Positions 11,664 through 61,910 of a stretch of 64,000 bases of DNA are shown here, piece by piece (the stretch's first letter is position 1; each line of letters begins with the position of its first letter). Where the stretch lies: assembly GCA_020437395.1 (NCBI GenBank), contig JAGQWJ010000007.1, positions 15,523 through 79,522 of the forward strand, written 5' to 3'. Made by a program: the position numbers and the translations under genes. The stretch comes from Ignavibacteriota bacterium (GTDB lineage Bacteria; Bacteroidota; Ignavibacteria; Kapaibacteriales; UBA2268). The notes under the pieces were generated by a model. That model worked only from the letters and a program-made list of their open reading frames with translations. It did no database searches and was not told where the DNA came from.

Positions 11664-11666
11664 TAA

Positions 11667-11682
11667 TGTTTCACGTGAAACA
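11667..11682. promoter_or_regulatory. parS (ParB/Spo0J binding site), perfect palindrome TGTTTCACGTGAAACA
   Basis: 16/16 match to the TGTTNCACGTGAAACA consensus, 13 nt upstream of mnmG. Confidence 0.85.
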
Positions 11683-11694
11683 TATTTATAGATT

Positions 11695-19706: not shown

Positions 19707-20252
19707 ATAACGCAATATAATAACATCGAAAATTTAACTAAAAAAGAGCTTGTAAAAGGTCTCAAAGCTAAGAATAGAGATTGTTATAATTATCTTTATA
19801 AAAATTATTCTGCCAAATTATATGGTATAGCTTTGCATATTACTCAGAAGACTGACCTGGCTGAAGATGTTCTACAAGAAACATTCATCAAGGTTTTCAA
19901 ACACGTTGGCAAATTCGACGAATCTAAAGGTACATTTTTCACATGGATGCTTAATATCTGTCGTAATGGAGCAATAGATAAAATAAGATATGGGAAAGAA
20001 AGCAAAAAAATCCAATTTGATTCGCTAAACGTAGATATTATATCGAAAACAAATCCAGAAATTGAACTGGCAAATAGTGAGTTATGGAACTTGTTAGAAA
20101 AACTTGACGAAGAACACAAAACTATTTTAAAACTATCTTATTATTACGGTTACTCACACTCAGAAATTGCTGAAAAATTGGATATGCCTTTTGGTACTGT
20201 GAAGTCAAAGATAAGAATTGCAATAAGGGAGCTCAGAAAAATATACCCATGA
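19707..20252 (+). CDS. ECF sigma factor (SigK-like), paralog 1, start codon uncertain
   Basis: About 80% identical to the paralog at 21131-21664. The first canonical start, TTG 19833, would delete region 2.1. The in-frame upstream sequence is homologous to the paralog N-terminus, with no stop back to 19677 and no ATG/GTG/TTG. ATA 19707 is proposed. Confidence 0.7.
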   Translation: MTQYNNIENLTKKELVKGLKAKNRDCYNYLYKNYSAKLYGIALHITQKTDLAEDVLQETFIKVFKHVGKFDESKGTFFTWMLNICRNGAIDKIRYGKESKKIQFDSLNVDIISKTNPEIELANSELWNLLEKLDEEHKTILKLSYYYGYSHSEIAEKLDMPFGTVKSKIRIAIRELRKIYP

Positions 20253-21070
20253 TCGATATAAAAAAATATATAGAATCAGGAATATTAGAAGAATATGTAG
20301 CTGGTACATTGACTTCTCAAGAAAGAGCAGAAGTAGAAGAATTAATAGAAATTCACCCAGAATTAGCCCAAGAAATAGAATCAATAAGTATTAGTTTATC
20401 AGTCTTTACAGATATTGGTGCTGTTGAACCTGCTTCCTATATGGAAGAAAGAATATGGGATAGTATAATTGGAACGGATTTCGATGGTGAAGAAGAAACG
20501 GTTGATAAAGCATTACTGACTTCTAACAAAGCAACTAAGTTACCTTACATATTAACAGTCGCAATGTCGATTATCATATTAGTGATTACCTATTTACTAA
20601 TTGAATCCAGTAACGACCTGGAAGTAGCAAAAGTTAAGATTATTGAATTAGAAAATAAGAATAATGAGTTAATTAAGGAATATGATAGATTAAAAAAAGA
20701 TTACGATTCATTGAATACAATTTCGAATATCTATAATCTAGAAAACTCAAAAATAATAGTAATGAATTCAAACAAGCGTAATGCTGGTAATTCTATCGTC
20801 CTATTTATATGGAATAAAGATAATAGCAAGATATATCTGGAAATAAAATCCTTACCCAAAAATAATCCGTCAATGACTTACATTTTGTGGGGTATAACTC
20901 AAATTGGACAACAAATTAAAATTGGTGATTTTGTATATGATGGCATTAGTAAGACGATAGAAGTAGGTAGGATGAACGGCGTTGTCAAGTTTATATTAAC
21001 CGAAGAGAACAATACGAAAGTAAGTCATCCAAATATGGCAAAAGTGTACACACATACAAATGTTTATTAA
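20249..21070 (+). CDS. Anti-sigma factor, RskA-like, paralog 1 (degenerate extracytoplasmic domain)
   Basis: N-terminal anti-sigma helix bundle (YIESGILEEYVAGTLTSQERAEVE), one TM and a C-terminal RskA-like domain. The start overlaps the sigma stop (ATGA). Confidence 0.75.
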   Translation: MIDIKKYIESGILEEYVAGTLTSQERAEVEELIEIHPELAQEIESISISLSVFTDIGAVEPASYMEERIWDSIIGTDFDGEEETVDKALLTSNKATKLPYILTVAMSIIILVITYLLIESSNDLEVAKVKIIELENKNNELIKEYDRLKKDYDSLNTISNIYNLENSKIIVMNSNKRNAGNSIVLFIWNKDNSKIYLEIKSLPKNNPSMTYILWGITQIGQQIKIGDFVYDGISKTIEVGRMNGVVKFILTEENNTKVSHPNMAKVYTHTNVY

Positions 21071-22497: not shown

Positions 22498-24297
22498 TTA
22501 TTGAAGTATTACAACTTTCTCAAAGTTAACTCTGTTTTTACTGGCATTAGTAATTGTTAGTTTGGTTAATTTAGTTGTTCTGTTTTTGCTCGACACTACA
22601 TCTAATCCACTTGGTATTGTTCTTATAAGCGTTGGATTAATTTCATAAGGTACAACAAAACTGACAGAAATATCTGTTTCCAGAGGTGCTACTAATTTAT
22701 TTCCTTCAAAAATATTAAATATCTCTGTTTCGGACTTAAACAAATAAGAAGGTATTTCCAATTTTGCGAATGAGCTATCAATACCAACTTTCTTACTATA
22801 TTTATCAAAATAAAGCACTCCTTTATAATCATATTCACCTTTTACGTATATAGCAACATCAATATATCTATTTTGGAACCTAATGTTTTCGGATAACATA
22901 GTGTCAATATTGAGAATCGGCTCTCTAGTACCAATATGGAATTGAATAATATCTGGTTCATTGTTAAGAACATATTCTGGGTCACCTAACTCATGTCCAA
23001 TAAACCCTTTTCCCATATTCTCTGGTTTATTTCTTGGTATATGATAGTCGTTAAGTCCAAGCATATCAAGAGCGGGGAACATAGTAAAATAGGGCAATGA
23101 ACCCGCAGGATCAATTGCAATTAGCGGCTGTTTCTCTCCGAATGTATTTTTGAGTTCCTTACCTAACGTTTTGAGATTGAATACCCAAAGAGATTTTCTT
23201 GATCGAGTGTTATTGTCATCGGTTATTTGCTGATATAGATAGAATAACATCAATAATGATAGTAGTGATATCCAAACCTTTTTTTTCTTAGGTTTAAAAT
23301 TATTCTGCTCTAAATATATTCCCATTCCATCTATTATTAGCAACATAAATACGATAATAGTAAATAGATGATGGCGAAATGCAAAGAAGAAATCCCCACC
23401 TATGAAAGCTATATATGCAGCCCAAATTCCTATTAGCATCATGTAGAGCAATGCGATTTGCTTTTTCTTATAGATCAGATAACCAAGAGATCCGAATGCA
23501 ATTAAGAATAAGGAAAAGTTAGATTTAAAAAACCTAAGAGTGTACATTATACCAGTATATGCGTGATAAAGCGACGGACTAACTTTTACATGTGCGGTGT
23601 TCGGTACTAATTCCCCATAGTATAGAATCCTAAATGTTAACTGTCCAAAGTATAGGATAATAGGAAACAATGCTATTTTTGATAGATTTGTAAAAGCAAT
23701 CTTCAAATCGTTTCTATTGGAAATTAGATGAAACAGACCGATAATAACTGAAAGAAGCACCCCATCTGGTCTAGTAATAGAGAGCAATCCCAAAGAGACG
23801 GATGAAAACCATAGATAACGAGTATCGTTCGTATTTTGATATTCTAAATATCGAGTTATGGATATCAAAGCTAATAAACTCACTAAGGAGTTCTCCAAAC
23901 CACCAATAGCCCATACTGCAACAATTGCAGAAGTTGAAAAAAGAAACAAAACAATCAATAAAATTTTTGGTGCAGTTGTATATTTCTTTTTTGCATAGTC
24001 AATAAGCAAATAAATATTTGTGAGTGTAAATAGTATGCCTAGAATACGTGCTACAAGCATCATATTAGCACCAAGCTTACCAAAAAAAGCTAAAATAAGA
24101 ACCCAAAGTAAATTTGAATACCCCTCTACCTTAATTCCATCAGTCCAGGTTAGTCCATATCCATCTATGAGTCGTTGTGCATAGCGCAAAGTAATAAGCG
24201 AATCATCGGCAAAGAAAGGCATATACCAGTTAATGTTTATTGCCAATGCGATACTTGATAAAACGAATAGGACTATATATATGCTTTTTTTTGTAAT
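22498..24297 (-). CDS. GT-C-fold (ArnT/PMT-like) polytopic membrane glycosyltransferase, putative
   Basis: At least 10 predicted TM helices. FFADDSLITLRYAQRLIDGYGLTW...VEGYSNLLW is a typical first-loop DD motif. The canonical TTG 24246 leaves no TM1. The upstream in-frame (I)TKKSIYIVLFVLSSIA supplies TM1 (ATT 24297 proposed). Confidence 0.6.
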   Translation of the reverse strand: MTKKSIYIVLFVLSSIALAININWYMPFFADDSLITLRYAQRLIDGYGLTWTDGIKVEGYSNLLWVLILAFFGKLGANMMLVARILGILFTLTNIYLLIDYAKKKYTTAPKILLIVLFLFSTSAIVAVWAIGGLENSLVSLLALISITRYLEYQNTNDTRYLWFSSVSLGLLSITRPDGVLLSVIIGLFHLISNRNDLKIAFTNLSKIALFPIILYFGQLTFRILYYGELVPNTAHVKVSPSLYHAYTGIMYTLRFFKSNFSLFLIAFGSLGYLIYKKKQIALLYMMLIGIWAAYIAFIGGDFFFAFRHHLFTIIVFMLLIIDGMGIYLEQNNFKPKKKKVWISLLSLLMLFYLYQQITDDNNTRSRKSLWVFNLKTLGKELKNTFGEKQPLIAIDPAGSLPYFTMFPALDMLGLNDYHIPRNKPENMGKGFIGHELGDPEYVLNNEPDIIQFHIGTREPILNIDTMLSENIRFQNRYIDVAIYVKGEYDYKGVLYFDKYSKKVGIDSSFAKLEIPSYLFKSETEIFNIFEGNKLVAPLETDISVSFVVPYEINPTLIRTIPSGLDVVSSKNRTTKLTKLTITNASKNRVNFEKVVILQ

Positions 24298-28822: not shown

Positions 28823-30107
28823 AAAAATAGTTTTCATATTGCTAATTCCTGTAATACTTATTTCGCAAACAGATTTATCGCTTCAACAAGCCGTAGAACG
28901 TACTTTGCAGAATAACTACAACATACTGATGGTTAAAAAGGATTTACAAATAGCTGACAACAACATTAGTTATGGCAATGCAGGTTTTTTACCCACTCTC
29001 GATGCTGCAGCCAGCTATCGCTTTTCTGCGGAAGATAGCGAAACGAAAACGAGTCAAGGTACATTCCCAGGAAATGACAACCAGGTTACAAATAGAAGTG
29101 CTTCTCTATCTATGGGTTGGACTTTGTTTGATGGTTTTGCTATGTTCGCTCGATATGATAAATTTGAAGAGCTGGAGAAATTGAACAAAATAGCTCTCCA
29201 ATTAGAGATAGAAACACGTTTGCAAGAGCTTTTTAATACTTATTACCAGATTAATATGCTCGACAAGAGTATAAAACTTCTTGAAGAAACTCTAAAATTC
29301 TCGCAAGATAGGTTGAATTTCCTAAATGCTTCTAACGAATATGGCGCAACTACTGGCACAGAAGTACTAAGAGCGGAAGTTGATTTTAACACTGATAATT
29401 CTAACTTAAAACGTCAAGAAGTACAAAAGAACGCTGCCTTAAATAGGTTAAAATATATCATGGGTGAAGTTAATGATACTCAGTATAATTTAACTTCTAA
29501 TTTAGATTTCTCGGATATTAGCGATTATAATTCTTTGAAAGAAATGGCTTTTGAAAGGAATAGCAATATTCAACAGGCAATGAAAAATAGAGAGATTTCG
29601 GAGTATGACGAGAAGATAATAGAAGCGGCTTATTATCCGAATATTCGATTAAATACGGGTTACAGCTACAGTGTACAAGAATCAGACAAAGGGTTTATCT
29701 TAGAAAGCTCTAACCAAGGTTACAACGCGACTCTAAGTGCTAGTTGGAACTTATTTAGCGGGTTTCAGACTAGGATAGCTGACCAAAACACCGAAATTTT
29801 ACAAGAGAAACAAGATTTATTCATCCAAAGCATTAGAGCTGTGATAGAAATGAATTTGATGACAAATTATCAATCATATTCAAATTTGAAAGAAATACTG
29901 GATCTTGAAATAAGGAATTTAGAGACAGCAAATGAGAACTTCGAACGTTCAAAAAGTATGTTCAAATACGGTACTATTAACTCGATTGACCTTCGCCAAT
30001 CGCAGATAAATTTGCTCGCTACCGAACAGCGAATAGTCAACCTAAAATACGAAATCAAAACCTTCGAGACTATGATACTAATGCTGAGTGGTCAGTTAGG
30101 TAGGTAA
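28815..30107 (+). CDS. TolC-family outer membrane efflux protein
   Basis: Signal peptide and a duplicated OEP repeat pattern. It overlaps the RND stop. Confidence 0.85.
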   Translation: MIKKIVFILLIPVILISQTDLSLQQAVERTLQNNYNILMVKKDLQIADNNISYGNAGFLPTLDAAASYRFSAEDSETKTSQGTFPGNDNQVTNRSASLSMGWTLFDGFAMFARYDKFEELEKLNKIALQLEIETRLQELFNTYYQINMLDKSIKLLEETLKFSQDRLNFLNASNEYGATTGTEVLRAEVDFNTDNSNLKRQEVQKNAALNRLKYIMGEVNDTQYNLTSNLDFSDISDYNSLKEMAFERNSNIQQAMKNREISEYDEKIIEAAYYPNIRLNTGYSYSVQESDKGFILESSNQGYNATLSASWNLFSGFQTRIADQNTEILQEKQDLFIQSIRAVIEMNLMTNYQSYSNLKEILDLEIRNLETANENFERSKSMFKYGTINSIDLRQSQINLLATEQRIVNLKYEIKTFETMILMLSGQLGR

Positions 30108-30301: not shown

Positions 30302-31327
30302 CTACTTCACCCTTATTAATATGATTTTGGTTGCGGTAGTTATGTCAGAATCAGTATTTCCTGCTGCGTATTTTGCTGATTTAACAGTAAGAGTACCACT
30401 TGTAGTAGTTCTGATAACTCCATTTAAAACATGTTCAGTAATTGAACCTATTATAGCATAGTTTTCTAATAAACCACTTGTATTAGAATTTCTATCTCTC
30501 ACTTCTATTAGAACTAAACTAGCTGTTCCACTATAGTCAAAATCAATATTAATATTGGAAGAACCACCTTTCCTTTCGGCGCCTATTAAACCCTTTACCA
30601 AGTAAACAGCATCAGCTGCTAATGTTGGCTGTGAGTCAGTGATATTTACATAAGTGGAAGATGTCAGAGTAATCAAAGATCCTAAACTAAGCTCTATCAC
30701 TTCTGGCAAGCTACTACCGCCACCACCGCCAGTTGTTTCCCAACTAAGGTTAGTTCCATCTGTTGATAGAAATTTACCACTGTTTCCTCCCTGTGAAGGC
30801 AGAGTGCTTTGCTTTGAGTCTAATTGGGTTTGAATGTTAGAGCTGGCTCCGTCTAATAGTTGAAACTCCGTATCTGAAATACTACCGTTAGCAATTTTGC
30901 TTGCATCTATACCACCAGTAGATGAGTTAATAGAGGTTACAACCGAATTACCAGCGGTTGCAGTGTTCTCTATCGACTTAGTTGATAGAGAAGATAGACT
31001 TCCAGATAGCTTTGTTCTTGGAGTTAGATTATTGCCACCTATGCTAATATTTAGCCATACTTGCTGTTCAGTGCTGATGTTGATAGCAGTGCTTTCACCC
31101 AAAGTGAGATTAAAAAAACCGTCTTCTGTAGTTACAGTTCTGGTCTCAGTCCAAAGCGAATTGCCATTAGTTGCGGCATCATAGATTGTAAATACAATCG
31201 TATAATTGCCATCTGATACAGGATTTCCACTATTGTCCTCCAATCTACCTTGGTAGTTCATCGTCTGGGGGATTTGTGCTAGTGTAATAATTGGCAATAG
31301 TATTAGTAAAAGAATGAATTTTTTCAT
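30302..31327 (-). CDS. Secreted tail-fibre-like modular protein (341 aa)
   Basis: Sec signal peptide. The N-terminal module is MNYQGRLEDNSGNPVSDGNYTIVFTIYDAATNGNSLWTE. GKFLSTDGTNLSWETTGGGGGSS forms the hinge, followed by a unique beta-rich C-terminal domain. Confidence 0.65.
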   Translation of the reverse strand: MKKFILLLILLPIITLAQIPQTMNYQGRLEDNSGNPVSDGNYTIVFTIYDAATNGNSLWTETRTVTTEDGFFNLTLGESTAINISTEQQVWLNISIGGNNLTPRTKLSGSLSSLSTKSIENTATAGNSVVTSINSSTGGIDASKIANGSISDTEFQLLDGASSNIQTQLDSKQSTLPSQGGNSGKFLSTDGTNLSWETTGGGGGSSLPEVIELSLGSLITLTSSTYVNITDSQPTLAADAVYLVKGLIGAERKGGSSNINIDFDYSGTASLVLIEVRDRNSNTSGLLENYAIIGSITEHVLNGVIRTTTSGTLTVKSAKYAAGNTDSDITTATKIILIRVK

Positions 31328-31336
31328 TTTGTTTTC

Positions 31337-32023
31337 CTACGCTTTCATTTTGAAATAAACAATTACAGGTATAGTTATGCCGAGTAATATCAGTGCCCAT
31401 TCGCTCAAAGTAGGAATAGGTGTTGTCTGAGTTAACTTAGGTATAGTACCATCAGTTTTGAAGTTGATAGATGCATTGTCGGAGCCATTCCAATTGAACG
31501 GAATTAGCAAGAATGTATAAGTCATACTTGGTTGTAATCCAGTAGCTGTTATCTTATCAGCCGTTTCATCTGTGAGAATAGATACCACTTTAGTCCCGTT
31601 GGATGAAGTGTACAAACTTGGGTAATTGCCATCGCTTATTATTATCTGTGGATCAGCGTTAGGTCTTGCTAATAAGACATAGCCCGCTGCGTTCGTTATA
31701 TCATTCGCAGGTTGTATATTGAACCTAATAGACCCTGCATCAAGGATAGTATCTAGAGTGAACGTATCTGAGTGTGATAGTGGTTCATCGCTAAGTTGAA
31801 CAACATCATTTTGAATATAATGGAAAATATAGCCTTCGCGGAGTAAATATTGGCTATTAGAACTTTTGTTGCCTATTGGCTGACCAACAACGTGGTAGAG
31901 AGTATTCGAGGAATTTGTTTGTTTACCCCCTCCAGCAGAAGTAGTATTCTTTTTTATCTGATACTGAGAAAAAAGAGGTGGTGCTATAAATAAAAGAAAT
32001 ATAATTAATCTGCTAAATTTCAT
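31337..32023 (-). CDS. Secreted protein with IPTL-CTERM sorting signal
   Basis: Signal peptide MKFSRLIIFLLFIAPPLFSQ and an Fn3-like middle (TGLQPSMTYTFLLIPFN). The C-terminus is PIPTLSEWALILLGITIPVIVYFKMKA (motif, TM, basic tail). The upstream 18 codons of the ORF are judged spurious. Confidence 0.75.
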   Translation of the reverse strand: MKFSRLIIFLLFIAPPLFSQYQIKKNTTSAGGGKQTNSSNTLYHVVGQPIGNKSSNSQYLLREGYIFHYIQNDVVQLSDEPLSHSDTFTLDTILDAGSIRFNIQPANDITNAAGYVLLARPNADPQIIISDGNYPSLYTSSNGTKVVSILTDETADKITATGLQPSMTYTFLLIPFNWNGSDNASINFKTDGTIPKLTQTTPIPTLSEWALILLGITIPVIVYFKMKA

Positions 32024-32126
32024 ATACCGCCTGTTATTAGTACAGATTAAATTAATAAATATTAACAAACAAGGCAAGAAAAAAAATTGTATTCGTTCTT
32101 TTTTTTCAGAATCTAGATTAGAAATA

Positions 32127-32160
32127 ATAAAAAAACCCCACGCCGTGATTGGTGTGGGGT
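32127..32160 (-). terminator. Rho-independent terminator after the 531-aa fibre gene
   Basis: CCCCAC-N11-GTGGGG with a T-run on the minus strand. Confidence 0.7.
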
Positions 32161-32188
32161 TACTAAAGTTTAAATCAATTTTTATTAA

Positions 32189-33784
32189 TTATTGGATAGT
32201 TAAAGGATAAGCTATTGTAGTAGGTAATCCTACCGCAGCATTAGTTGTTGCTGTTAACGCCCAACCGCTAGTACCACCAGTACTTGATGAACAACTACCA
32301 GAATTCTCAATTGATTGAGTACCTCCTGGAATAGCAACGCTTGTAGATACGCCATTTGCACTCGGATTAGCTAAAGTGTATAAAGTTGTATTACTACCAG
32401 AATATACTAAATAATTAGAATTTCTTTTCTGTCCTGAGGATCCACCATCATTTAGATATGGTGAACCTGTACATGATGCACCAGTCCACCATATTTGATC
32501 AGAATCAAATGGGAACCCATTTACTAGTTCTAATGTAATATCAACCACATAACCACCTGATGTAATTACAGTTACACTAGCTCGATTACTAAACCCAACT
32601 ATTGTACCTAATGTCACATTATTAGCATCTACTAGAACCTTTCCACTTCCACCACCGCCACCGCCAGCTGGAGCAGCCCACACAGCATCAGTACCACTAA
32701 CAGTTAATACGTGACCATTTGTTGCACCAGGAGAAATCTTAGCAGCCGTTACAGCTTTATCTTCAATTTTTGCAGTCGCAACAGCATTGTCTGCCAATTT
32801 GGCTTCAGTTACTGCGCCGTCATTAATTTTGTCTGTTGTTACTGCAGCATTGTTAATCTTTGCTGTTGTTACTGCAGAAGTTCCAATTTTAACATCAGTT
32901 ACTGCAGAAGAACCAATCTTATCTGTTGTTACGGCTCCAGTTGCTATTTTTCCAGTAGTAACAGCGTCATTGTTAATCTTTGTTGTCGTTACAGCACCAT
33001 CATTTATCTTAGCAGTTGCAACGGCATTGTCAGCTAAACTTAAAGGAGAACCTGTTGTTCCGTTTCCGTTGATTGTCGCGTCAGTATTAACTGCACTTTC
33101 AGCTACTACAACTTCGCCAGAAGCATTAACAGCAATATTACGTGTTCCTGCACCTGTTAAGTTGCCTAATGTTGTTACACCAGTTGCAGTTAATGTACCA
33201 GGAATAGTTACTCCACTTGAAGTTGCTGTCAACACATCTGTATTGTCAACTGTCATCTTTGCAGTACCACCGTTGTAACTCAGAGCCAATTCTGTGTTAC
33301 CTGCTTCTCCACTTGTAGGACCAATGTGCACTGTATTTCCTGTTACATATAGCTCACCCCATCTGTTATCATCTGTTCCAACGCTTCCCGCACCACTTTC
33401 AGAAGGAGATAAGTTACCTTCTATATCAAAAATCCCACCTTGACTTTGTGATAATAATAAATTATCAAGTCTGTATTGAGCAACAAGTGAAGCGCCAACA
33501 TATACATCAAGTATATGATAATTAGTAACTGTATTAGATGCAATAGCAGTCCACCCAGCACCAGATATGTTAGCTATAATTATACCTGATCCATTTGGAG
33601 TATAATTTGTTGCTGGCTGAGTGTAAAGTAGTGTGGCAGTACCACCTGTATAATTATTTAACCTGATTTCTACACTAACTGGTGCAGTACCAGTATTAAC
33701 TATTGCAACTTTGATGGGCTCTAACGCACTAGCAGTGCTGATAGAAAGCAAAGCTAAAGCAAGAAGTAAAAAGACTTTTTTCAT
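32189..33784 (-). CDS. Secreted tail-fibre-like modular protein, paralog A (531 aa)
   Basis: Signal peptide and an N-terminal ~170-aa module shared with 34744-36354. Next come ten 10-aa xxAVTxxKIx repeats, a GGGGGGSG hinge and a unique Cys-containing C-terminal domain. Confidence 0.7.
   Translation of the reverse strand: MKKVFLLLALALLSISTASALEPIKVAIVNTGTAPVSVEIRLNNYTGGTATLLYTQPATNYTPNGSGIIIANISGAGWTAIASNTVTNYHILDVYVGASLVAQYRLDNLLLSQSQGGIFDIEGNLSPSESGAGSVGTDDNRWGELYVTGNTVHIGPTSGEAGNTELALSYNGGTAKMTVDNTDVLTATSSGVTIPGTLTATGVTTLGNLTGAGTRNIAVNASGEVVVAESAVNTDATINGNGTTGSPLSLADNAVATAKINDGAVTTTKINNDAVTTGKIATGAVTTDKIGSSAVTDVKIGTSAVTTAKINNAAVTTDKINDGAVTEAKLADNAVATAKIEDKAVTAAKISPGATNGHVLTVSGTDAVWAAPAGGGGGGSGKVLVDANNVTLGTIVGFSNRASVTVITSGGYVVDITLELVNGFPFDSDQIWWTGASCTGSPYLNDGGSSGQKRNSNYLVYSGSNTTLYTLANPSANGVSTSVAIPGGTQSIENSGSCSSSTGGTSGWALTATTNAAVGLPTTIAYPLTIQ
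32735..33034 (-). repeat. Ten tandem 30-nt coding repeats (consensus peptide xxAVTTxKIx)
   Basis: Residues 251-350 of the 531-aa protein: ADNAVATAKI NDGAVTTTKI NNDAVTTGKI ... EDKAVTAAKI. Confidence 0.85.
33701..33784 (-). repeat. 84-nt block 100% identical to 36271-36354 (start codon plus signal peptide of the fibre paralogs)
   Basis: Read directly from the sequence. Identity falls to about 85% immediately downstream and disappears upstream of the ATG. Confidence 0.9.
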
Positions 33785-33832
33785 AAGGTCTTACCTTGAA
33801 TTAATTAATAGAATAAGAATTACATCAAAAGA

Positions 33833-33840
33833 CAAAAATA
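33833..33840 (-). promoter_or_regulatory. TATTTTTG -7 promoter motif for fibre paralog A
   Basis: TAnnTTTG match, 49 nt upstream of ATG 33784. Confidence 0.35.
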
Positions 33841-33884
33841 AACAATTTATTTGAATTGTAAGATGAACATTAACAAAATTTAAC

Positions 33885-33892
33885 TAATTTTG
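33885..33892 (+). promoter_or_regulatory. TAATTTTG -7 promoter motif for the trypsin-fold gene
   Basis: TAnnTTTG match, 40 nt upstream of ATG 33932. Confidence 0.35.
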
Positions 33893-33931
33893 TAAAATCA
33901 CAATAAATTTTAACCTAAAAATGGATAACAA

Positions 33932-34672
33932 ATGAAATACTTACTATTTTTTTTAGTAGCTTTTAATACAATATATTCAGTAAACAGTAAGGAATTTATT
34001 GATCAAGATAATATGGAACCAACAATAAAAAAGTCGGAATTAAATTTTGTTGGCTATGTAAAAGATGAAAAGAATATCAATTTAGGTTTGTGTTTTGCTA
34101 TAAATGAAAATACTGTTGTTACTAATGCGAGTTCGTTACAGACTAGAATATTAATTCCTGATACATTATTTGTAAATGGACAACAGATTATTTCTAAAAA
34201 GGAAATAGGAAGAAAATGGGTGGATAGTTCAAAATTAACTCTAACAATAGAAGGCACTACATATGATATAGAAAAAGTAATTCCTCATCCTGATTATAAT
34301 GAAAGTAACTCATATCTGCCTGATATAGCGATGATTATAACAAAAAAAAGTATAAGCTGCAATTATCCTCAGAGAAGTAGCTCATCAATAGTTAAGAATT
34401 TGTTTTGTGATGTAATAGGAAGTGAAAGTTCGATTTTCCACAGAAAAGTTAAAGTCAGTGAAACGTTTAATACAAAAAGTTATAACTACTGTAATGTATT
34501 ACTAGATACAAACGATTTAGGATCTGTTTTAGTAAAAGAATCTGAAAATGACGTTGTGATAATTGGTTTAATGCAAAAACATCAAACCGATGATAAGAAA
34601 GCGGTGTATTTAGATTTATTTGGTCTAGATGAATGGCTTAATTCTAATGCCGTTAGTCAAATTACAAAATAA
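33932..34672 (+). CDS. Secreted trypsin-fold (S1 family) pseudoprotease
   Basis: Signal peptide. CFAINENTVVTNASS aligns to ...TAAHC (His lost). HPDYNESNSYLPDIAMI retains Asp102. NDLGSVLV replaces GDSGGPL (Ser lost). Confidence 0.6.
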   Translation: MKYLLFFLVAFNTIYSVNSKEFIDQDNMEPTIKKSELNFVGYVKDEKNINLGLCFAINENTVVTNASSLQTRILIPDTLFVNGQQIISKKEIGRKWVDSSKLTLTIEGTTYDIEKVIPHPDYNESNSYLPDIAMIITKKSISCNYPQRSSSSIVKNLFCDVIGSESSIFHRKVKVSETFNTKSYNYCNVLLDTNDLGSVLVKESENDVVIIGLMQKHQTDDKKAVYLDLFGLDEWLNSNAVSQITK

Positions 34673-34673
34673 C

Positions 34674-34713
34674 AAAAAAACCCCCACTTATCTAAAAATC
34701 AGAAAAGTGGGGG
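34674..34713 (-). terminator. Rho-independent terminator after fibre paralog B
   Basis: CCCCCACTT-N15-AAGTGGGGG with a T7 run on the minus strand. Confidence 0.75.
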
Positions 34714-34743
34714 TGGTAAAATGCATAAGACTAAATATTTAAT

Positions 34744-36354
34744 CTATTTGTTTGGTGTTAATATATTACTATCAACATTATTTGTGCTTGATGGTAATTC
34801 GTTGAAGTTATTATCAATATTTATAGATTGGACTTTTATTTCGCCAAAAGCATCTGGTTGTAAATAATGTCCCTTTTGTTCGGGAGTCTTATCTACTTCA
34901 ACAACTATTCTATTTTTTTCAGCGTAAGGGTCATGACGAATACCTGTGACCATCCAAGAAACTTTTAAATTCGGAATTCCACCTGCGATTTGAAATCTAT
35001 TGTCTTTTACTTCTTGAGCTATATATAAACCTGAACAAGGAGCACCTATTGGTGTGAGTTGATATCGAAAATCCTTATTTAATGCTTGAAACCAGTTTGG
35101 TAATTGAACCCATGCCTCTCCATTATTATCAAGAATTACGATTCCATCATTAATATTTTTCATATCAGGGGATTCCACAAAAGAGTGGTAAAGAATTTTA
35201 TTCTTGGGGTCTAAAGGATGGTCAATCATAAAGGATCCTCCACCTTTAGCAACATTGCCCGAAACAGTTAGATTTCCCGAAACTACAACATTACCTGTAA
35301 ATCTAGCAGCATTACCAGTGCTGTTTGTTGTTACTATCAATGCATCAGAAAAATTAGAAGCGTTTACATTTTCGAATTTACCAGCAGAACCAGTACCTCC
35401 ACTTATCCCAGCTTGACCAAGTACTCCAATACCACCTTTTGTGTTAAAACCACGCACTCCATAACCAGTAGAGTCATTTCTTCCTACAACAGCACCAACT
35501 CCATTTCCACCTCTGTTTCGACCTACAACGGCTTCGCCAAACGTATTATCTCCAATTACTCCAGCAGCAGAGATACTAGAAGTTATTCCCCAAACACCGT
35601 TTCCACCTGCACTAGTTGAGAAAACCCCAGGGCCTACTCCATTATGAGCTACGTCAACACCTCTACCACCATTGCTTGCATTATTCAAATTAACTCTTAC
35701 TCCTGTACCAGTACCATTTGAATTAACTTCTAATATATTATTTGTATTAGAAGGGTTTGTATTACTTATTTTAACTTCATTTTTTGTAATTTCAATTACA
35801 TCATTATTATCTACATTTATTCTACCTTTATTTGGTGAAGTATTATAACTTAATTTCATTTCAGTATTACTAACTTCGCCACCGTTGGGGCCTATGTGAA
35901 CTGTATTTCCTGTTACATATAGTTCATCCCATCTTTTACCATCTGTTCCGACACTTCCTGTTCCACTTATAAGTGGTGTTAGATTACCATCAGGGTCTAA
36001 TACATTACTTTGAGATTGGCTGATTATTTGTTGGTCTAGTCTGTATTGTGCGGCAAGTGAACCGTCAACATATACATCAAGTATATGATAATTTGTAACT
36101 GAACTGGAGGCAATGGCTGTCCACCCTGCACCTGATATGTTAGCTATAATAATACCTGATCCGTTTGGAGTATAATTAGTTGCAGGTTGTGTATATAATA
36201 AGGTCGCAGTGCCACCAGTGTAGTTGTTTAGTCTGATCTCTACACTAACCGGTGCAGAGCCTGTATTGATTATTGCAACTTTGATGGGCTCTAACGCACT
36301 AGCAGTGCTGATAGAAAGCAAAGCTAAAGCAAGAAGTAAAAAGACTTTTTTCAT
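34744..36354 (-). CDS. Secreted tail-fibre-like modular protein, paralog B (536 aa)
   Basis: Same signal peptide and N-module as paralog A. It then has Gly-rich GVxG repeats, a GGGS hinge and a C-terminal domain FMIDHPLDPKNKILYHSFVESPDM...FRYQLTPIG...KVSWMVTGIRHD. Confidence 0.7.
   Translation of the reverse strand: MKKVFLLLALALLSISTASALEPIKVAIINTGSAPVSVEIRLNNYTGGTATLLYTQPATNYTPNGSGIIIANISGAGWTAIASSSVTNYHILDVYVDGSLAAQYRLDQQIISQSQSNVLDPDGNLTPLISGTGSVGTDGKRWDELYVTGNTVHIGPNGGEVSNTEMKLSYNTSPNKGRINVDNNDVIEITKNEVKISNTNPSNTNNILEVNSNGTGTGVRVNLNNASNGGRGVDVAHNGVGPGVFSTSAGGNGVWGITSSISAAGVIGDNTFGEAVVGRNRGGNGVGAVVGRNDSTGYGVRGFNTKGGIGVLGQAGISGGTGSAGKFENVNASNFSDALIVTTNSTGNAARFTGNVVVSGNLTVSGNVAKGGGSFMIDHPLDPKNKILYHSFVESPDMKNINDGIVILDNNGEAWVQLPNWFQALNKDFRYQLTPIGAPCSGLYIAQEVKDNRFQIAGGIPNLKVSWMVTGIRHDPYAEKNRIVVEVDKTPEQKGHYLQPDAFGEIKVQSINIDNNFNELPSSTNNVDSNILTPNK
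36271..36354 (-). repeat. Second copy of the 84-nt identical 5' block
   Basis: Identical to 33701-33784. Confidence 0.9.
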
Positions 36355-36542: not shown

Positions 36543-38729
36543 CTAATGTAAGAAAAGTAGTTCTCTGTATTTAGGTAGTGGCCAATTGCGGTCATCTACT
36601 ATTAACTCGAGTGCGTCTGCTTCTGCTCTTATTTTGTCAAATAAAGGTTTTACGGTATTAGCAAAAGCTATGCCTCTTGCATCCATTTTGTGTTCGTTCT
36701 CTGCTTCTAATCGGACTTTTCTCAATTCATTCAGATATTGATTGAGATTCTTTAATCTTTGAGAAATTTCTCTGATTGAATCTTTTTGTACTTCTGCTTC
36801 TTCTGGCAAACCAATATTTACAAGTCCTTTTACATTGTCTATTAGTCGATTCTGATGCTGAACACAAGCAGGAATTATGTGAGCTTTTGATATTTCTTCC
36901 ACTAATCTGGCCTCAATGTCTATTTTAGCGCAATACTCTTCCATTGCAACATTGTATCTTGCTTGTAGCTCATTTCTACTGAATACTCCGTTTCTTTCAA
37001 ATAAACTTATGGTTTTTTCAGTTAAATATTCATCATAGGCCTCTGGGGTGGTCTTAATGTGAGGTAGGCCTCTTCTTTCAGCTTCTTTCACCCATTCTTC
37101 TGAGTAATTATTACCATTGTAAATTACATCATTAGATTCTTTTAGCACTTGACGAAGTACTTTCTTAATTGCTTGCTCTACATCTGGAGTATTTTTTCTC
37201 TCTTCTTCAACTCTGTTCTTAAATTCAACCAATTGATCTGCAACAATAGTATTCAATACAGTCATAGGATTAGAAACATTAACGCTACTTCCCACAGCAC
37301 GAAATTCGAATCTATTGTCAGTGAATGGAAAAGGGGAAGTTCTGTTTCTATCTGTATCATCTCTGCGAATATTAGCTATCTTTTCTAAATTCAAATCTAG
37401 TATTCCAGTATTCGTGTCGTCATAGCTTTCGTCGTTCATAAACGATTTTAGAACATTTGCTAAATTATCGCCAGTAAAAACTGATATTATAGCAGGCGGT
37501 GCTTCATTTGCACCTAATCTGTAATCGTTACCTGCATTGGATATACTAGCTCTCAGCAATCCAGCATAATTATGAATAGCAGCTATTACGTTAATGAAAA
37601 AAGTTAAGAAACTGAGGTTTTCCAACGGAGCGGAACCAGGCGAAAGCAAATTTTTACCATCGGTTGTAGCTAAAGACCAATTGTTGTGTTTACCAGAGCC
37701 GTTGATACCAGCAAATGGTTTTTCGTGAATTATAGCTCGAAGGTTGTGTCTTTTTGCTACTAAATCAATTATCGACATAAGCAATTGGTTGTGGTCAGCA
37801 GCAATATTGGCTGTTTCAAAGTTCGGAGCACATTCGAATTGATTTGGTGCTACTTCATTGTGTCTAGTCGTAATAGGAATTCCTAACTTCAAACAATCGT
37901 TTTCAAAGTCATGCATAAAATCATATACTCGCTCAGGTATTTGTGCGAAATAATGGTCATCGAGTTGTTGTCCACGAGCTGATGCGTTACCGAATAGAGT
38001 TCTTCCGCAAAGCAGTAGATCAGGTCTTGCGTTGTAGAGAGCTTCATCAACGACGAAATATTCTTGTTCCCACCCAAGAGTAGGTACTATTTTTTTTACA
38101 TTTGGATCAAAATATTTTTCGATTTCTAAGGCAGCTTTTTCTATTGCGTGGATTGATTTGAGTAGTGGAGTTTTTAAGTCAAGGGAATCACCTTCGTAAG
38201 AGATAAAAATGGCAGGGATACATAGAGTTTTCCCGTGCTTGGCCTCCATTATAAAGGCATGGGAACTAGGATCCCAGATTGTGTAACCTCTTGCTCGGTG
38301 TGTTTCTCTTAGTCCACCACTAGGAAAACTCGATCCGTCTGGTTCTTGTTTGATAAGTTCTTTCCCGCTGAATGCCTCAATTGGGTTGCCATGTCTGTCC
38401 AGTTTAAAAAAGGAGTCGTGCTTTTCAGCCGTTCTTCCAGTTAGGGGTTGAAACCAATGTGTGTAGTGAGTAGCCCCGTTATCAATTGCCCAATTCCGCA
38501 TACCTACGGCAACAAAATCTGCCGTTTTAACATTGATTTTTTGTCCATTTTCAACCGCGTCTCTTAGCCCTTCGTAGGCTTCTTTCATTAAATATTTTTT
38601 TATTGATTCGTCGTTGAAAACTAGGCGAGAGTAGTACTCAGAGATTGGCTTGTCTTTAACGTTTCCGCTAAATCGTTTGTCTTGCTTGTTGGGGTTGATA
38701 TTTAGCAGACTTTCGCTTCTTATTGACAT
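36543..38729 (-). CDS. glnN: Glutamine synthetase type III
   Basis: 728 aa, the GSIII length. Motifs include HYTHWFQPLTG, SFPSGGLRETHRARGYTIWDP and NGSGKHNNWS. Confidence 0.92.
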   Translation of the reverse strand: MSIRSESLLNINPNKQDKRFSGNVKDKPISEYYSRLVFNDESIKKYLMKEAYEGLRDAVENGQKINVKTADFVAVGMRNWAIDNGATHYTHWFQPLTGRTAEKHDSFFKLDRHGNPIEAFSGKELIKQEPDGSSFPSGGLRETHRARGYTIWDPSSHAFIMEAKHGKTLCIPAIFISYEGDSLDLKTPLLKSIHAIEKAALEIEKYFDPNVKKIVPTLGWEQEYFVVDEALYNARPDLLLCGRTLFGNASARGQQLDDHYFAQIPERVYDFMHDFENDCLKLGIPITTRHNEVAPNQFECAPNFETANIAADHNQLLMSIIDLVAKRHNLRAIIHEKPFAGINGSGKHNNWSLATTDGKNLLSPGSAPLENLSFLTFFINVIAAIHNYAGLLRASISNAGNDYRLGANEAPPAIISVFTGDNLANVLKSFMNDESYDDTNTGILDLNLEKIANIRRDDTDRNRTSPFPFTDNRFEFRAVGSSVNVSNPMTVLNTIVADQLVEFKNRVEEERKNTPDVEQAIKKVLRQVLKESNDVIYNGNNYSEEWVKEAERRGLPHIKTTPEAYDEYLTEKTISLFERNGVFSRNELQARYNVAMEEYCAKIDIEARLVEEISKAHIIPACVQHQNRLIDNVKGLVNIGLPEEAEVQKDSIREISQRLKNLNQYLNELRKVRLEAENEHKMDARGIAFANTVKPLFDKIRAEADALELIVDDRNWPLPKYRELLFLH

Positions 38730-48146: not shown

Positions 48147-51100
48147 TTACTTGACTATCACTAGGGTTTTGGAACTAATAATTTTATTTTTCTTCAATAC
48201 AAGGTGGTACGCACCAGATAAGAATCCACTTGAATCAAATTGAACAATATTTTCACCTTTTTGCAATTTGACTTTTTCTTTGTGTAGCTCTTCACCTCTC
48301 TGATCAAGTACTAATAGCTCATATTCGTTATCCTCATTAGAATATATCTGTATATTAGATGTACTATTCACAGGGTTCGGAGCTATTGTTTGAATTTCAG
48401 TATCTGTGTGTATTATCGATTGGTCATTGCAAGTAAGTAACAGTGTAAACAATCCTGAATTTTCGGAGTTAGAAGTACTTGCACCCCAAAAAACTGATTT
48501 TTCTGAATCAAATAACATTGTAGATGTATTTTTTTCACTAAGCCCAGGATAACCAACAATTTTTGCTAATGTCCCTTCTTTCGGGAAATCTCCGTTGACT
48601 GTAAGCCGCATCAATCTTTTCCCATTTTCAATACCAATATTCTCGATAGTAGCATCGCCATAATCAGAAACAGCATATTCAGGTATAAATATCTTAGGAT
48701 CAATAGTAACTATTGCTTCAAACTTTCTAATACCTTTATAACTCGCATTTTCTAAATTTGTAAAGCTAATGGATATGGAAGTAGTATCTAATGGATTGGC
48801 TTCCGTATCATTTATAACTAACTCTGATTCTGCTTTATAGTCTAGCAAATTAACTAATCTTTGAGTTAAACACGGCACAGCTTCTAATTCCAAAGTCGCC
48901 GATACATTTTCTTCAGTACCTATCCATTCTATTTCAATCTCTTTTGTTTCTCCAGGCATAATGGTAATAGGTGTGCTGCTATTAATTCTGAAGTCTATTG
49001 CTGGATTTAGAATTAGGTTACTTATTTCAACCGCATCTACGCCAATATTCTTAATTGTCAATTTTCTGACCCTCTGTTCATTAATGAATGGCATTGTAGT
49101 ATGGCTCATCTCTACGTAAGTACCTATTCCTTTGACAAATAGCTTAGCAACCGCTTTGTATTTCTCCTGGTCGCTATGCAAAACGGAAAAATCTGAGCTA
49201 ATGTCGCCAACAATATTCGGTACTACTCTCACGGTAGCAGTTACAAATTCACCTGGTGCTAAAATGGTATCTTGTTTATAATTCTCGAATGAAAATATAT
49301 TCGAACTATCTGCTTGAAACTTATTGAATTTCAGTGGAACAGGGTCTGCATTAGTAAATATTTTATCTGTTATGTAGCTGGTATCCTGAATACAAACTTC
49401 GCCGAAATCTATTATATTACTATTGAAAACAATATTTCTGTTTAATCCATTTCCAGTAACATAAACTGGATAATCGACACTGCAAGATGACAGTATTAGA
49501 GAGTCAGATACTATGCTGGTATCTTTTGGATTAAAGATAACTGAAATATTTATACATTCATTCGGCAGTAAAGTATCGGGTAAATCAAAATTATCAACTG
49601 AAAAATGAACTTGATATTTGAATCTTGCATCGTCAATAAACAATGGCACTTCTCCTTTGTTGCAAAACTCAACGTCAAAAGTTTCTTTCCTGCTGTTGAA
49701 TATATACTCGTCACCAAAAACGAAAGGCTCTTTTTCAACAATTGGGTTGATTATTCTAAAAGACTCATCAGACACATCGGTCTCAGGGAACGTAAAGTAA
49801 TATTGTTTCATTTTAAAACTACCATTACCTACACTAGAAACAATGAAAGCGTTGTTTTCAGATGAGTAAGACAAATCGTACATAGCGTCCTGAAAAGTCT
49901 CAATTATACCAGATTGAAGCCCTTTCACTAAGTCATAAATATTAATTTGATTCTGGTACTGATAAGCAAATATCGCCATGTTACCAGTAGGGCTAAAACC
50001 AATTTCTACAGGATCAGAACCGCTAATATTTACCGAAGTAATTATATTTTTAGTTTCTAAATCCCAAATCATGGAATTGGTTCTCCCTTCATTAGCGCGT
50101 GCAACTGAGCTTAGACCAACTAATTTACCATTTGGAGAAATATTTATTTTTTCGATAACTGGAGTTCTATAAAATTCGATACTGTCTTTTGTTTGAAAAT
50201 CAGTTGTTGAAACAACGAGAACTTTTCCGTCCAAATTGCTCACAGCCATAAGATTAGTGTCGTTCGCAATTCCAACATCTGTGATAGGTTGCTGGTAAAT
50301 AACTTCTTTCTTAAGTTGAAGGGTTTGGCTGTCGTAAACCCTAAAATAATTCCCAAAGCGAGGAACTAGGATAAACTCATTCTTATTTTTTAAAGTGTAA
50401 ATCTCTTTGGGATTGAAGTCTGAGACACTAATTTTCTCGATTGCCGTTGTGTTACCTACTTGGAATATGGCCAATGTATCAAAATTTCCCACCGAATAGA
50501 TAGCTGCAAACCTATCATCAGAAATATATTTGGCTGAAAGAGGCAATTGATCATTGTTTCTCGAATTTAACTTGTAGTCAATTTTCGAATTATCTAATTT
50601 GACCAAATCCCACTCGGAGATTGTTCCAACTATAAATGATATAGCTTTCGTAGAGTTGAAGTTATAGTCAACGGAATATACGCTACTCCCAACAGGGAAA
50701 ATATGTGGTGCACGTTTCGTAAAATCTTGACTAATTCTAACTCTTGCATTCTCAGAAGTTTTTTTAGAAGGAATTTTCCAATCTAAAGTGTCCGCAATAA
50801 TTGAATCAATCTTTTCCCACGTCTCACCGTTGTCATAGCTTAGGTCAACACGAGTGTGAATATTTTTTACATTACCCTCCCAAGCAATGATAGTATCTTG
50901 ACAAGGAGTAAATGTTTCGCCACCATTTGGAAAATTCAATTTCAAATTGGTCTTCGCTTCTATTTTCTTTTTGTTTCCTTGAACACGTAAGTAAGCCACA
51001 GCTCCGCGGTTGTAGAAAACCTTTATAATTGCCGATTGCGCTCCTTCTTCGTAAGGTGCGAATCTTACTAATATTTGGTTTGAAGTGAACAGAATACTAG

Positions 51101-52884: not shown

Positions 52885-52887
52885 TAA

Positions 52888-61472: not shown

Positions 61473-61910
61473 CTATTTAGTTGTTTTACCTTCGTAAAGT
61501 TCTGTGAAGACTTTGTCTATAGGCTCCCAAAACTCGATTTTATTTCCTTCTGGATCTATGATATGAGCAAATTTACCATACTCGTAAGCCTCAATCTCAC
61601 CAACTATTTGCACACCTTCAGAACGTAGATTTTCGATTAATTTTTCTATGTTTTGGACTCGGTAGTTAATCATGTATTGCTTGTCGGATGGGGAGAAGTA
61701 ATCGGTATTTTTATCAAAAGGGCTCCATTGTAGATATCCCTTTTGGTCAGGATTATCGGAGTCTCTGAACTCGAACAAAGATCCGTATTCGTTAGTGACT
61801 AAACCTAGCTTTTCCGAATACCAATTCCTCATATTCTCGGGGTTATCACTTTTGAAGAATATACCACCAATTCCTATTACTTTAGGTTCTTTATCTTTAC
61901 TATTACTCAT
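61473..61910 (-). CDS. VOC (glyoxalase/bleomycin resistance) family protein
   Basis: GIGGIFFKSDNPENMRNWYSEKLGL ... FAHIIDPEGNKIEFWEP. Confidence 0.8.
   Translation of the reverse strand: MSNSKDKEPKVIGIGGIFFKSDNPENMRNWYSEKLGLVTNEYGSLFEFRDSDNPDQKGYLQWSPFDKNTDYFSPSDKQYMINYRVQNIEKLIENLRSEGVQIVGEIEAYEYGKFAHIIDPEGNKIEFWEPIDKVFTELYEGKTTK

Follow-up and report, generated by a model that had tools for sequence, protein, structure and literature searches.

A chromosomal locus of modular, tail-fibre-like proteins with signal peptides and exchangeable tips in an Ignavibacteriota bacterium

The closest described counterparts of the proteins reported here form the superfamily of mosaic adhesive trimer (MAT) fibres in Bdellovibrio bacteriovorus (Caulton et al. 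2024, PMC10769870). A MAT begins with a Sec signal peptide, which is followed by a conserved beta-rich N-domain (~130 aa), a phage-like stalk and an exchangeable tip (TNF-like, S74, lectin or a novel beta-sandwich); several paralogues are found per genome in non-phage chromosomal contexts, and relatives from further phyla, among them members of the FCB group, were tabulated by the MAT authors (Supplementary Table S3, PMC10769870). We analysed a locus of similar design in a 64,000-nt stretch of DNA (the window) from an Ignavibacteriota bacterium (GenBank assembly GCA_020437395.1, contig JAGQWJ010000007.1, positions 15,523 to 79,522 of the forward strand). Five consecutive open reading frames (ORFs), here called P1–P5, encode three tail-fibre-like proteins (P1, P3 and P5) with independently folding, exchangeable tips, a small protein with an IPTL-CTERM signal (P2) and a trypsin homologue (P4) (Table 1). 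Positions are those of the whole window, and P1N and P5N denote the N-module types of P1 and of P3 and P5, respectively.

Other systems of comparable design differ more clearly from the locus. Phage tail fibres and tailspikes (e.g. the S-TIM5 fibre, AP22 gp53 and the R-type pyocin) likewise combine short-repeat modular stalks with swappable receptor-binding tips; in place of a virion-attachment domain, however, the window fibres carry a Sec signal peptide and an N-module absent from phage collections, and they are chromosomal, multi-copy and conserved between species, with no virion genes in the window. BclA of the Bacillus exosporium consists of an N-terminal domain attached to a basal-layer protein, a collagen-like stalk and a C1q/TNF-like trimeric tip. 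The window fibres are reminiscent of BclA in their N-terminal attachment module, putatively trimeric stalk and TNF/C1q-like jelly-roll tip, and the tip of one relative matches BclA_C, but they have neither collagen repeats nor homology to the BclA N-domain, and their host is diderm and non-sporeforming. Trimeric autotransporters of the YadA family are also trimeric surface fibres with a head, a stalk and repeats, and one P2-coupled fibre carries YadA_head-like NSVAMG repeats; the window fibres differ in lacking a C-terminal beta-barrel translocator/anchor, and their polarity is reversed, with the conserved end N-terminal and the variable tip C-terminal.

We consider it probable that P1, P3 and P5 are Sec-exported, phage-tail-fibre-like and most likely homotrimeric adhesin or recognition fibres of the cell surface, built on the MAT plan. 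A preliminary description of the locus, made from the DNA sequence, had suspected a system of fibre-like adhesins that are exported by Sec and do not belong to a phage, with exchange of distal cassettes and an undescribed anchoring route, and this is supported by our analysis. Systems of this kind have since been described, the MAT plan having been published in 2024.

Anatomy of the three fibres

The five ORFs are all present at 30302–36354, and the anatomy proposed for three of them in the preliminary description was recovered. P1, P3 and P5 follow one plan, namely a signal peptide, an N-module, a stalk, a poly-Gly hinge and a C-terminal tip; each of the hinges that had been quoted was located, the GTD(D/G)xRW(G/D) motif was found in both long paralogues, and the C-terminal domains do differ, P3 and P5 being unrelated past ~240 aa and the P1 tip being TNF-like. 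A Sec signal peptide had been claimed for every protein and is present in all five, as judged by a heuristic based on residue features (n-region, hydropathy and −3/−1 residues): each N-terminus combines a K/R n-region with a hydrophobic core (10-aa Kyte-Doolittle maximum 2.2–3.5), and small residues stand ahead of a likely cleavage site (e.g. between STASA and LEP, or ITLA and QIP).

The likeness to MATs is most direct in P1, the N-domain of which is probably a distant homologue of theirs. With the signal peptide removed, it weakly but reproducibly matches the NCBIfam model Bdello_MAT_N (NF053851, 'mosaic adhesive trimer family chimeric fiber protein'; 30.5–31 bits, E value ~2e-7 to 2.8e-7), as do 12 of the 14 mature N-domains in the wider P1 family, all of them under the curated 60-bit cutoff. 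The tips found on proteins with a P1-type N-domain are Peptidase_S74 or TNF/BclA_C-like, both of which are MAT tip classes (PMC10769870). An AlphaFold2 (AF2) model of P1 comprises an N-terminal beta-sandwich and a C-terminal jelly roll, both at a predicted local distance difference test (pLDDT) of ~90 or more, while aa 110–159 of the stalk remain below 50 when modelled as a monomer. Foldseek searches with the tip model returned TNF-family trimers (Pgp3, 4-1BBL, EDA and BC2L-C) and the tip of the MAT Bd2734 (PDB 8okw, probability 1.0). P1 is probably, to judge from these similarities, a distant, minimal member of the MATs, i.e. a short divergent relative of 341 aa as compared with about 600–1,900 aa in MATs.

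P3 and P5 are near-identical over aa 1–115, display 68 % identity over 240 aa and are unrelated beyond. Neither of them matches Bdello_MAT_N; they resemble MATs in plan, and we regard both as a variant that is specific to this lineage and built on another base module. This P5N module evolves under purifying selection (dN/dS 0.11 at dS 0.8) and was found solely in Kapabacteria/Ignavibacteria-type genomes; the host of the locus, an organism of this type, has no known predatory lifestyle, unlike that of the MATs. Our census returned 11 loci from 7 species representatives, with up to three loci per genome, scattered in unrelated housekeeping neighbourhoods. In L016 (7054–7728), a protein of only 224 aa, the N-domain of which is P5N-like (33 % identity), is encoded directly upstream of another P5N-type fibre, and this very short family member forms a tandem with it. 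At the nucleotide level, the start of P3 is 100 % identical to that of P5, from the ATG to about +92 (36263–36354 versus 33693–33784), i.e. over the signal peptide and ~11 further residues. Their upstream regions are unrelated, and the 96 codons after the patch have a dS of ~0.8; the patch looks like a short gene conversion or a constraint at the nucleotide level.

The stalks of both long fibres are connected to phage fibres. The P3 repeats match PHROG tail-fibre families (E value down to 1e-18), and aa 249–353 share 57 % identity with the tail fibre of cyanophage S-TIM5. For P5, AF2 returned a pLDDT of 80–90 for the N-domain, 86–92 for the Gly-rich block and >90 for the tip, with aa 110–177 below 50 as a monomer. 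The Gly-rich block was assigned no secondary structure by DSSP despite its high pLDDT, and may adopt a polyglycine-II fold or an irregular solenoid. Foldseek searches with the P5 model gave weak matches to phage and pyocin fibre domains in the PDB and matches to predicted viral minor-tail/tail-fibre proteins with E values down to 1e-9. The P5 block and tip are widespread: they are shared by 2,924 or more proteins of many phyla, in some of which they stand behind collagen triple-helix repeats. Sequence searches of solved structures with full-length P1, P3, P4 and P5 returned nothing significant other than one weak match of the P3 repeats to a 269-aa chain, orf16 (9eg4), and profiles of both N-modules and of the P5 tip, as well as the P3 tip itself, had no significant match there. 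The fold and homology checks recommended in the preliminary description thus recovered phage-fibre stalk modules and a tip of a trimer-forming, TNF-like type.

These data also bear on whether the proteins are fibres at all, rather than ordinary monomeric proteins, secreted or on the surface (beta-helix or Ig-like adhesins, or glycan-degrading enzymes), which share repeats with phage fibres and are not MAT analogues. The confident separate domains of the AF2 monomer models and the sub-cutoff MAT score would fit such proteins; we nevertheless regard this explanation as improbable, as the structures matched by the P1 tip (TNF ligands, Pgp3, BC2L-C and Bd2734) are obligate trimers, the P1 and P5 stalk stretches named above are poorly modelled as monomers, relatives join the same modules to collagen, S74 chaperone and YadA-head modules, and no enzyme family in the profile libraries (including Pfam, NCBIfam and PHROG) matches P1, P3 or P5. 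We infer a homotrimeric state for the fibres from the TNF-like nature of the tip, from the homology of the stalks and from the collagen, S74 and YadA modules found on relatives, and the low pLDDT of the stalks is what would be expected if they fold only within an oligomer.

Table 1. Coordinates of the features of the P1–P5 locus within the 64,000-nt window
Feature	Position	Strand	Details
P1 fibre ORF	30302–31327	-	341 aa
P1 TNF-like tip	30305–30709	-	aa 207–341
P1 poly-Gly hinge TTGGGGGSS	30710–30736	-	aa 198–206
P1 stalk	30737–30991	-	aa 113–197; pre-hinge motif GKFLSTDGTNLSW at its end
P1 N-domain	30992–31273	-	aa 19–112
P1 signal peptide	31274–31327	-	aa 1–18
P2 IPTL-CTERM protein ORF	31337–32023	-	228 aa
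P2 IPTL-CTERM signal IPTLSEWALILLGITIPVIVYFKMKA	about 31340–31417	-	aa 203–228
Terminator hairpin, core CCCCACACCAATCACGGCGTGGGG plus T-run	32126–32160	-	3' of P3; RNA fold -17.1 kcal/mol, z -5.0
Swapped cassette	32161–33044	-	P3 distal stalk and tip (aa ~248–531) and 3' spacer
P3 fibre ORF	32189–33784	-	531 aa
P3 tip A	32192–32641	-	aa 382–531
P3 poly-Gly hinge APAGGGGGGSG	32642–32674	-	aa 371–381
P3 ten 10-aa repeats KIxxxAVTxx	32729–33040	-	aa 249–352
P3 junction motif TINGNGTTGSPL		-	aa 237–248
P3 tail-fibre-like motif GTD(D/G)xRW(G/D)ELYVTGNTVHIGP	33317–33379	-	aa 136–156
P3 N-module beta-sandwich	33455–33724	-	aa 21–110; signal peptide before it, aa 1–20
P4 trypsin homologue ORF	33932–34672	+	246 aa, divergent to P3
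P4/P5 hairpin (CCCCCACTT...AAGTGGGGG)	34680–34715	none	between convergent genes; read directly from sequence
P5 fibre ORF	34744–36354	-	536 aa
P5 widespread tip (FMIDHPLDP...)	34840–35232	-	aa 375–505
P5 hinge KGGGS	35233–35247	-	aa 370–374
P5 Gly-rich block	35260–35769	-	aa 196–365; 22 % Gly
P5 motif GTD(D/G)xRW(G/D)ELYVTGNTVHIGP		-	aa 136–156
P5 N-module beta-sandwich	36025–36294	-	aa 21–110; signal peptide before it, aa 1–20

Cassette replacement in the P3 slot

Exchange of distal domains, which the preliminary description had suspected and proposed to trace by comparing strains, was observed directly in a second genome (GCA_041391585.1, locus L001). In this strain, the P3 slot is occupied by a 799-aa fibre (P0173), in which a distal part of 551 aa replaces the cassette of the window. 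BLASTn alignment of the two loci gave 97.8 % identity from 40000 to 33045 and 98.0 % identity from 32160 to 26000, with no homology across the cassette itself (32161–33044), and P4 and P5 are 100 % identical between the strains. A real cassette replacement has therefore occurred in the P3 slot between flanks that are ~98 % identical. In a third allele (P0157), identity to P3 is 97 % up to the end of the poly-Gly hinge, and the tip that follows is unrelated.

Both ends of the replacement could be mapped. On the stalk side, homology stops right past the motif ...NTDATINGNGTTGSPL, which is found again at every stalk module of the allele of 799 aa. On the 3' side, it resumes exactly at the terminator hairpin of P3 (32126–32160). 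The 24-nt hairpin core CCCCRCACCAATCANGRCGTGGGG (32136–32159 in the window) lies 3' of the P5N-type fibre gene in loci L001, L002, L005, L006, L013 and L025, and was present at every locus with that position covered, including those of another species in which the coding DNA is only ~75 % identical; it therefore represents a conserved 3' boundary of the exchangeable slot. The 24-nt hairpin may be more than a terminator, e.g. a recombination arm or a mobile intergenic element. In L025, two copies of the core in direct orientation (4224–4247 and 7857–7880) bracket a pair of P4-like and fibre genes.

The locus is a patchwork beyond the main swap and recombines often. Short divergent patches relative to L001, in strains that are otherwise 97–100 % identical, were detected in the 3' half of P2 (31361–31660, 68–85 % identity), in P1 (30961–31160) and in the proximal stalk of P3 (33207–33500), where the N-terminal part of P3 was compared by BLASTn and sliding-window identity and contains an indel.

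The same modularity is apparent between genes. A census of further N-module copies, also called for in the preliminary description, showed the P3/P5 N-module in combination with six or more different tips and with several stalk types. One protein (P0149) has a P1-type N-domain on the stalk and tip of P5, and another (in L019 of GCA_048267165.1) combines a P1-type N-domain with YadA-head-like repeats and a different tip. Furthermore, P5N-type fibres have a tip homologous to the P1 tip family (hhalign 98 %, E value 1.4e-13), a relationship that is resolved by profile-profile comparison only, the pairwise BLAST of the P1 tip with the tip of P0209 being non-significant (E value 2). Tips and stalks thus move between both N-module types.

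Diversity probably arises by homologous recombination at a few conserved junctions, namely a stalk motif (T(I/L)NGxGxxGSPL), the poly-Gly hinge and the 3' terminator hairpin. Exchange at these junctions leaves the N-module and its genomic slot in place and gives the fibre a new stalk and tip. In the mature fibre, the N-terminal beta-sandwich module would stay near the cell and act as an anchor, followed by a stalk of phage-type modules, the poly-Gly hinge and an exchangeable C-terminal binding tip, which may bind external ligands as in the Bdellovibrio MATs. Two types of N-module stand side by side in the locus, the MAT-N-like type of P1 and the Kapabacteria/Ignavibacteria-only type of P3 and P5. 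The exposure of the fibres on the cell surface, the proximal position of the N-module and the role in adhesion are inferred by analogy with the systems introduced above.

Tip swapping, which was inferred from paralogues in the MAT work, is seen here as allele replacement between strains that are ~98 % identical, with mapped junctions that distinguish this locus from the MATs. The stalk motif, poly-Gly hinge and terminator hairpin provide a recombination model and natural design rules for chimeric fibres. MAT-type fibres are the means by which a bacterial predator recognises many different prey, and exemplify the reuse of phage receptor-binding hardware at the bacterial surface; a MAT-like design would now extend to uncultured, non-proteobacterial Kapabacteria/Ignavibacteria, and in a very short form (341 aa). 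As an alternative N-module is also present, the principle of a conserved base with a swappable tip is independent of any one anchor domain. Should the fibres serve in recognition between cells, predatory, epibiotic or aggregative behaviour may have gone unnoticed in Kapabacteria. We found no report in the literature of such fibres in Kapabacteria, of a second N-module type, of coupling to an IPTL-CTERM partner, of a pseudo-protease partner or of mapped cassette junctions including a conserved hairpin.

Partner genes P2 and P4

Neighbouring genes of the P2 and P4 kind have not been reported for MATs. P2 had been described as an IPTL-CTERM-anchored, Fn3-like protein that is co-transcribed with the short fibre. 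The first element is well founded, as P2 exceeds the gathering threshold of the Pfam model IPTL-CTERM (PF18203; 26.1 versus 20.8 bits) and the cutoff of TIGR04174 (21.0 versus 20.5 bits), has an N-terminal signal peptide, a C-terminal IPTL motif, a transmembrane helix and a basic tail, and keeps IPTLSEWALILLGITIPVIVYFKMKA in all orthologues. Co-transcription is in line with the position of the P2 stop codon, 9 nt upstream of the P1 start, and P2 and P1 appear to form one transcription unit, with P3 and P5 each standing alone. The Fn3-like label was the weak part, resting on a match with an E value of 0.077. As for the start of P2, the mechanical ORF extends to a TTG at 32077, but all database gene calls take the ATG at 32023, which we adopted.

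The coupling of P2 to P1-type fibres is strict. The P2 family is tiny (18 clusters of 224–229 aa, 61–99 % identical), and its members are the sole IPTL-CTERM proteins in all DNA examined, i.e. the window and the compared loci. In eight of eight loci examined, a P2-type gene lies 9–10 nt upstream of a P1N-type fibre; these loci cover at least four different neighbourhoods plus two separate pairs in one genome, and P2 divergence follows the divergence of the N-terminal 175 residues of the fibre. As P2 stands upstream of every P1-type fibre examined, it is a candidate anchor. An IPTL-CTERM protein of a diderm, the S-layer protein of Methylomirabilis, has been localised to the outermost cell layer (PMC8671808). 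The two pairs in one genome (GCA_048267165.1) are located at L019:8001–11435 and L024:4305–6248; one includes a 415-aa P1-like fibre, and the L019 pair a 912-aa fibre with the NSVAMG repeats and a tip of another kind.

P4 lies between the two long paralogues and had been called a secreted, catalytically dead trypsin-fold protein, a description that our analysis bears out. P4 itself scores 19.5 bits against Pfam Trypsin, and six of seven family members match this model (best E value 2.7e-16). Of the catalytic residues, Asp102 is kept (DIAMI), while His57 is replaced by Ser (TNASS, 34121–34135) and Ser195 by Leu (NDLGS, 34511–34525); as His57 and Ser195 of the triad are lost, P4 is a pseudo-protease and not an active S1 member. 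More distant relatives (P0245, P0246 and P0248) retain TAAH(C) and GDSG. The P4 family comprises nine representative clusters among 1.84 billion proteins, and its coupling to fibres is looser than that of P2: a P4 homologue adjoins a P5N-type fibre, in divergent orientation, in L009, L025, L026 and L010, the last of these extending the pairing to family-level distance (47 % identity in a Melioribacteraceae metagenome-assembled genome, MAG). In L004 (7541–8279), the P4 gene is split into ORFs of 82 and 183 aa by a frameshift or an assembly error.

In the proposed mechanism, P2 would be a surface dock or assembly partner of P1-type fibres, and P4 a non-catalytic accessory of P5N-type fibres, e.g. 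a binding or chaperone-like factor. A more specific version, in which P2 is a cell-surface dock that holds the conserved N-domain and P4 the equivalent accessory for the second N-module type, is speculative and on the whole unlikely. Were it true, P2 and its fibre would be a two-gene unit of anchor and fibre, the simplest mounting of phage-derived fibres on a bacterial envelope, and recombination between a stalk motif and a conserved terminator hairpin would exchange the distal part of the unit. The dedicated small fibre holder that we presume P2 to be, in this hypothetical role, would mirror the basal-layer partner of BclA. The coupling of P2 to the fibres also offers a testable candidate both for the missing anchor of MAT-type fibres and for the function of the IPTL-CTERM signal.

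The fibres might alternatively form a structural coat or appendage (a hairy nap like that of BclA) with P2 as its base or as an S-layer-like protein, the tips varying so as to evade phages, grazers or predators. An anchor, a stalk and a TNF/C1q-like tip are the architecture of BclA as well, one relative matches BclA_C, and strain-level replacement of alleles is what diversifying selection on exposed structures would produce. Moreover, the Methylomirabilis S-layer protein is the only experimentally studied IPTL-CTERM protein that we found in the literature (PMC8671808). Against a coat of this kind, P2 has only 228 aa and belongs to a very small family (18 clusters), lattice formation finds no support, and TNF-like, S74 and lectin-type tips bind ligands in MAT and phage precedents (PMC10769870). 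We give this explanation a low probability; it overlaps with that of recognition fibres on the MAT plan and differs from it in purpose only.

Genomic context and weighing of the evidence

By its closest database matches, the window belongs to a Candidatus Kapaibacterium-type MAG of the Kapabacteria/Ignavibacteria lineage. The preliminary description characterised the locus as being without any phage genes, and this is correct for the window. Capsid, terminase, tail, sheath and integrase genes are lacking among its ~45 ORFs, no att-like repeat or Rfam family was found at the locus, and there is no tRNA there, the nearest being tRNA-Pro at 42438. The flanks, which were to be inspected for a prophage, tailocin or contractile-injection cluster, consist of housekeeping genes only: DnaX, SerRS, a Mur ligase, MnmG, sugar-nucleotide enzymes, two RND/OEP efflux systems, GSIII, MFS transporters and a thiolase. 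A 17-nt direct repeat (16/17 identical) does flank the five-gene block (29972–29988 and 36597–36613); we rejected it as an att site and judged it to be due to chance, both copies lying inside housekeeping genes (OEP and GSIII). The statement does not extend to the relatives of the locus. One related species has a phage head module of three genes directly after the terminator of the P5N-type fibre (L025:8011–10176 and L013:1745–3908), encoding a head maturation protease (phrog_976, E value 1e-63), a major head protein (phrog_1005, E value 4e-89) and a scaffold/decoration protein (phrog_673, E value 1e-24). No portal, terminase or tail genes were found near this module; its surroundings are housekeeping genes, and it is absent from the window. 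In the Melioribacteraceae MAG (L010), a tyrosine integrase gene (10645–11862; phrog_1, E value 4e-29) immediately follows the P4-like/fibre pair, on the other side of which a 1,227-aa uncharacterised protein is encoded; this pair may be located on a mobile island.

The genes could alternatively be read as what is left of a degraded prophage, a tailocin or another particle of phage origin, i.e. as former receptor-binding proteins that are stranded or still arm particles encoded elsewhere. The homology between the stalk modules and phage tail fibres is genuine, and the head trio of L025 and L013, the L010 integrase and a 40-nt direct repeat that brackets the P4-like/fibre pair of L025 would be in keeping with such an origin. 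All three fibres and their relatives, however, have N-terminal signal peptides, which, together with the lack of a virion or tail gene module in the window, sets P1, P3 and P5 apart from phage receptor-binding proteins. Both N-modules and all three tips are absent from 50,697 GenBank phage genomes, and the P5N module is absent from IMG/VR. The window and ~10 other loci have housekeeping neighbours only, the N-module is under purifying selection, and the genes are intact, multi-copy and kept across species; the head trio, for its part, is incomplete and confined to a single lineage. We treat this trio as a sign of evolutionary traffic between fibre loci and phages and not as a window prophage. 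A phage-derived particle is thus the least probable of the explanations considered here, and we would not set it at zero mainly because of the phage-gene neighbours in L025, L013 and L010. An anti-phage defence system was rejected, the sole PADLOC match being a repeat-driven one of P3 to PD-Lambda-5_A.

Several points weigh against the interpretation of P1, P3 and P5 as surface recognition fibres on the MAT plan. The P1 match to Bdello_MAT_N is confined to the first half of the model (positions 13–79 of 162), and its score is half of the curated cutoff; the P1N and P5N modules have no sequence relationship to each other (hhalign probability 0.2 %), and the P3 and P5 tips had no characterised relatives in searches of solved structures. 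Trimerisation, surface display and adhesion are suggested by homology and by the modules that are joined to these domains elsewhere. MAT-N-type proteins of other, distant lineages have no P2-like neighbour, and the P2/fibre coupling is therefore specific to this lineage. The roles given to P2 and P4 derive from conserved adjacency, and P4 may be dispensable if the L004 frameshift is real. Finally, in view of the head module, the fibres of some lineages may be functionally tied to phage-derived particles.

The base composition of the locus does not support the view, also put forward in the preliminary description, that the five genes are a GC-rich island. GC content is 0.37–0.395 in the four large genes as compared with a window mean of 0.344; in P4, it is 0.278, and housekeeping stretches elsewhere in the window reach 0.40. 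As the GC of the locus lies within the range of the window, we rejected a compositional island or a signal of horizontal transfer; the excess in the fibre genes is what Gly/Ala/Thr-rich coding would give. The hairpin between the convergent genes P4 and P5 (34680–34715) is probably, from its position and form, a bidirectional terminator shared by both genes, and was missing from the list returned by the terminator scan.

None of the five proteins carries the C-terminal domain (CTD) of the type IX secretion system (T9SS; Por_Secre_tail, Pfam search, E value ≤1), as had been stated. One other window protein matches it (26.5 bits, slightly below the 27-bit cutoff), namely a large secreted beta-propeller/Ig-like protein of 1,180 aa (48147–51689, minus strand). 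A second large secreted protein of 1,062 aa has Sortilin/BNR repeats (55500–58688, minus strand). The window further encodes a GluR0-type prokaryotic ligand-gated ion channel with Lig_chan, Ion_trans_2 and periplasmic-binding-protein domains (7154–8227, plus strand) and two tandem RlaP-family paralogues (51823–53655, minus strand; RNA repair pathway, DNA polymerase beta-like nucleotidyltransferase). ORFs of 231–582 aa with no Pfam match at an E value ≤1e-5 are located at 22498–24246 (minus), 20249–21070 (plus), 2417–3112 (minus) and 61910–62638 (minus); the 273-aa member of this set stands before an extracytoplasmic function (ECF) sigma/anti-sigma (RskA) pair. Long antisense ORFs are also present on the plus strand within P3 (32711–33278) and P1 (30897–31184); they are unlikely to be genes, and arise because the coding strand is repeat-rich and rich in Gly, Thr and Ala.

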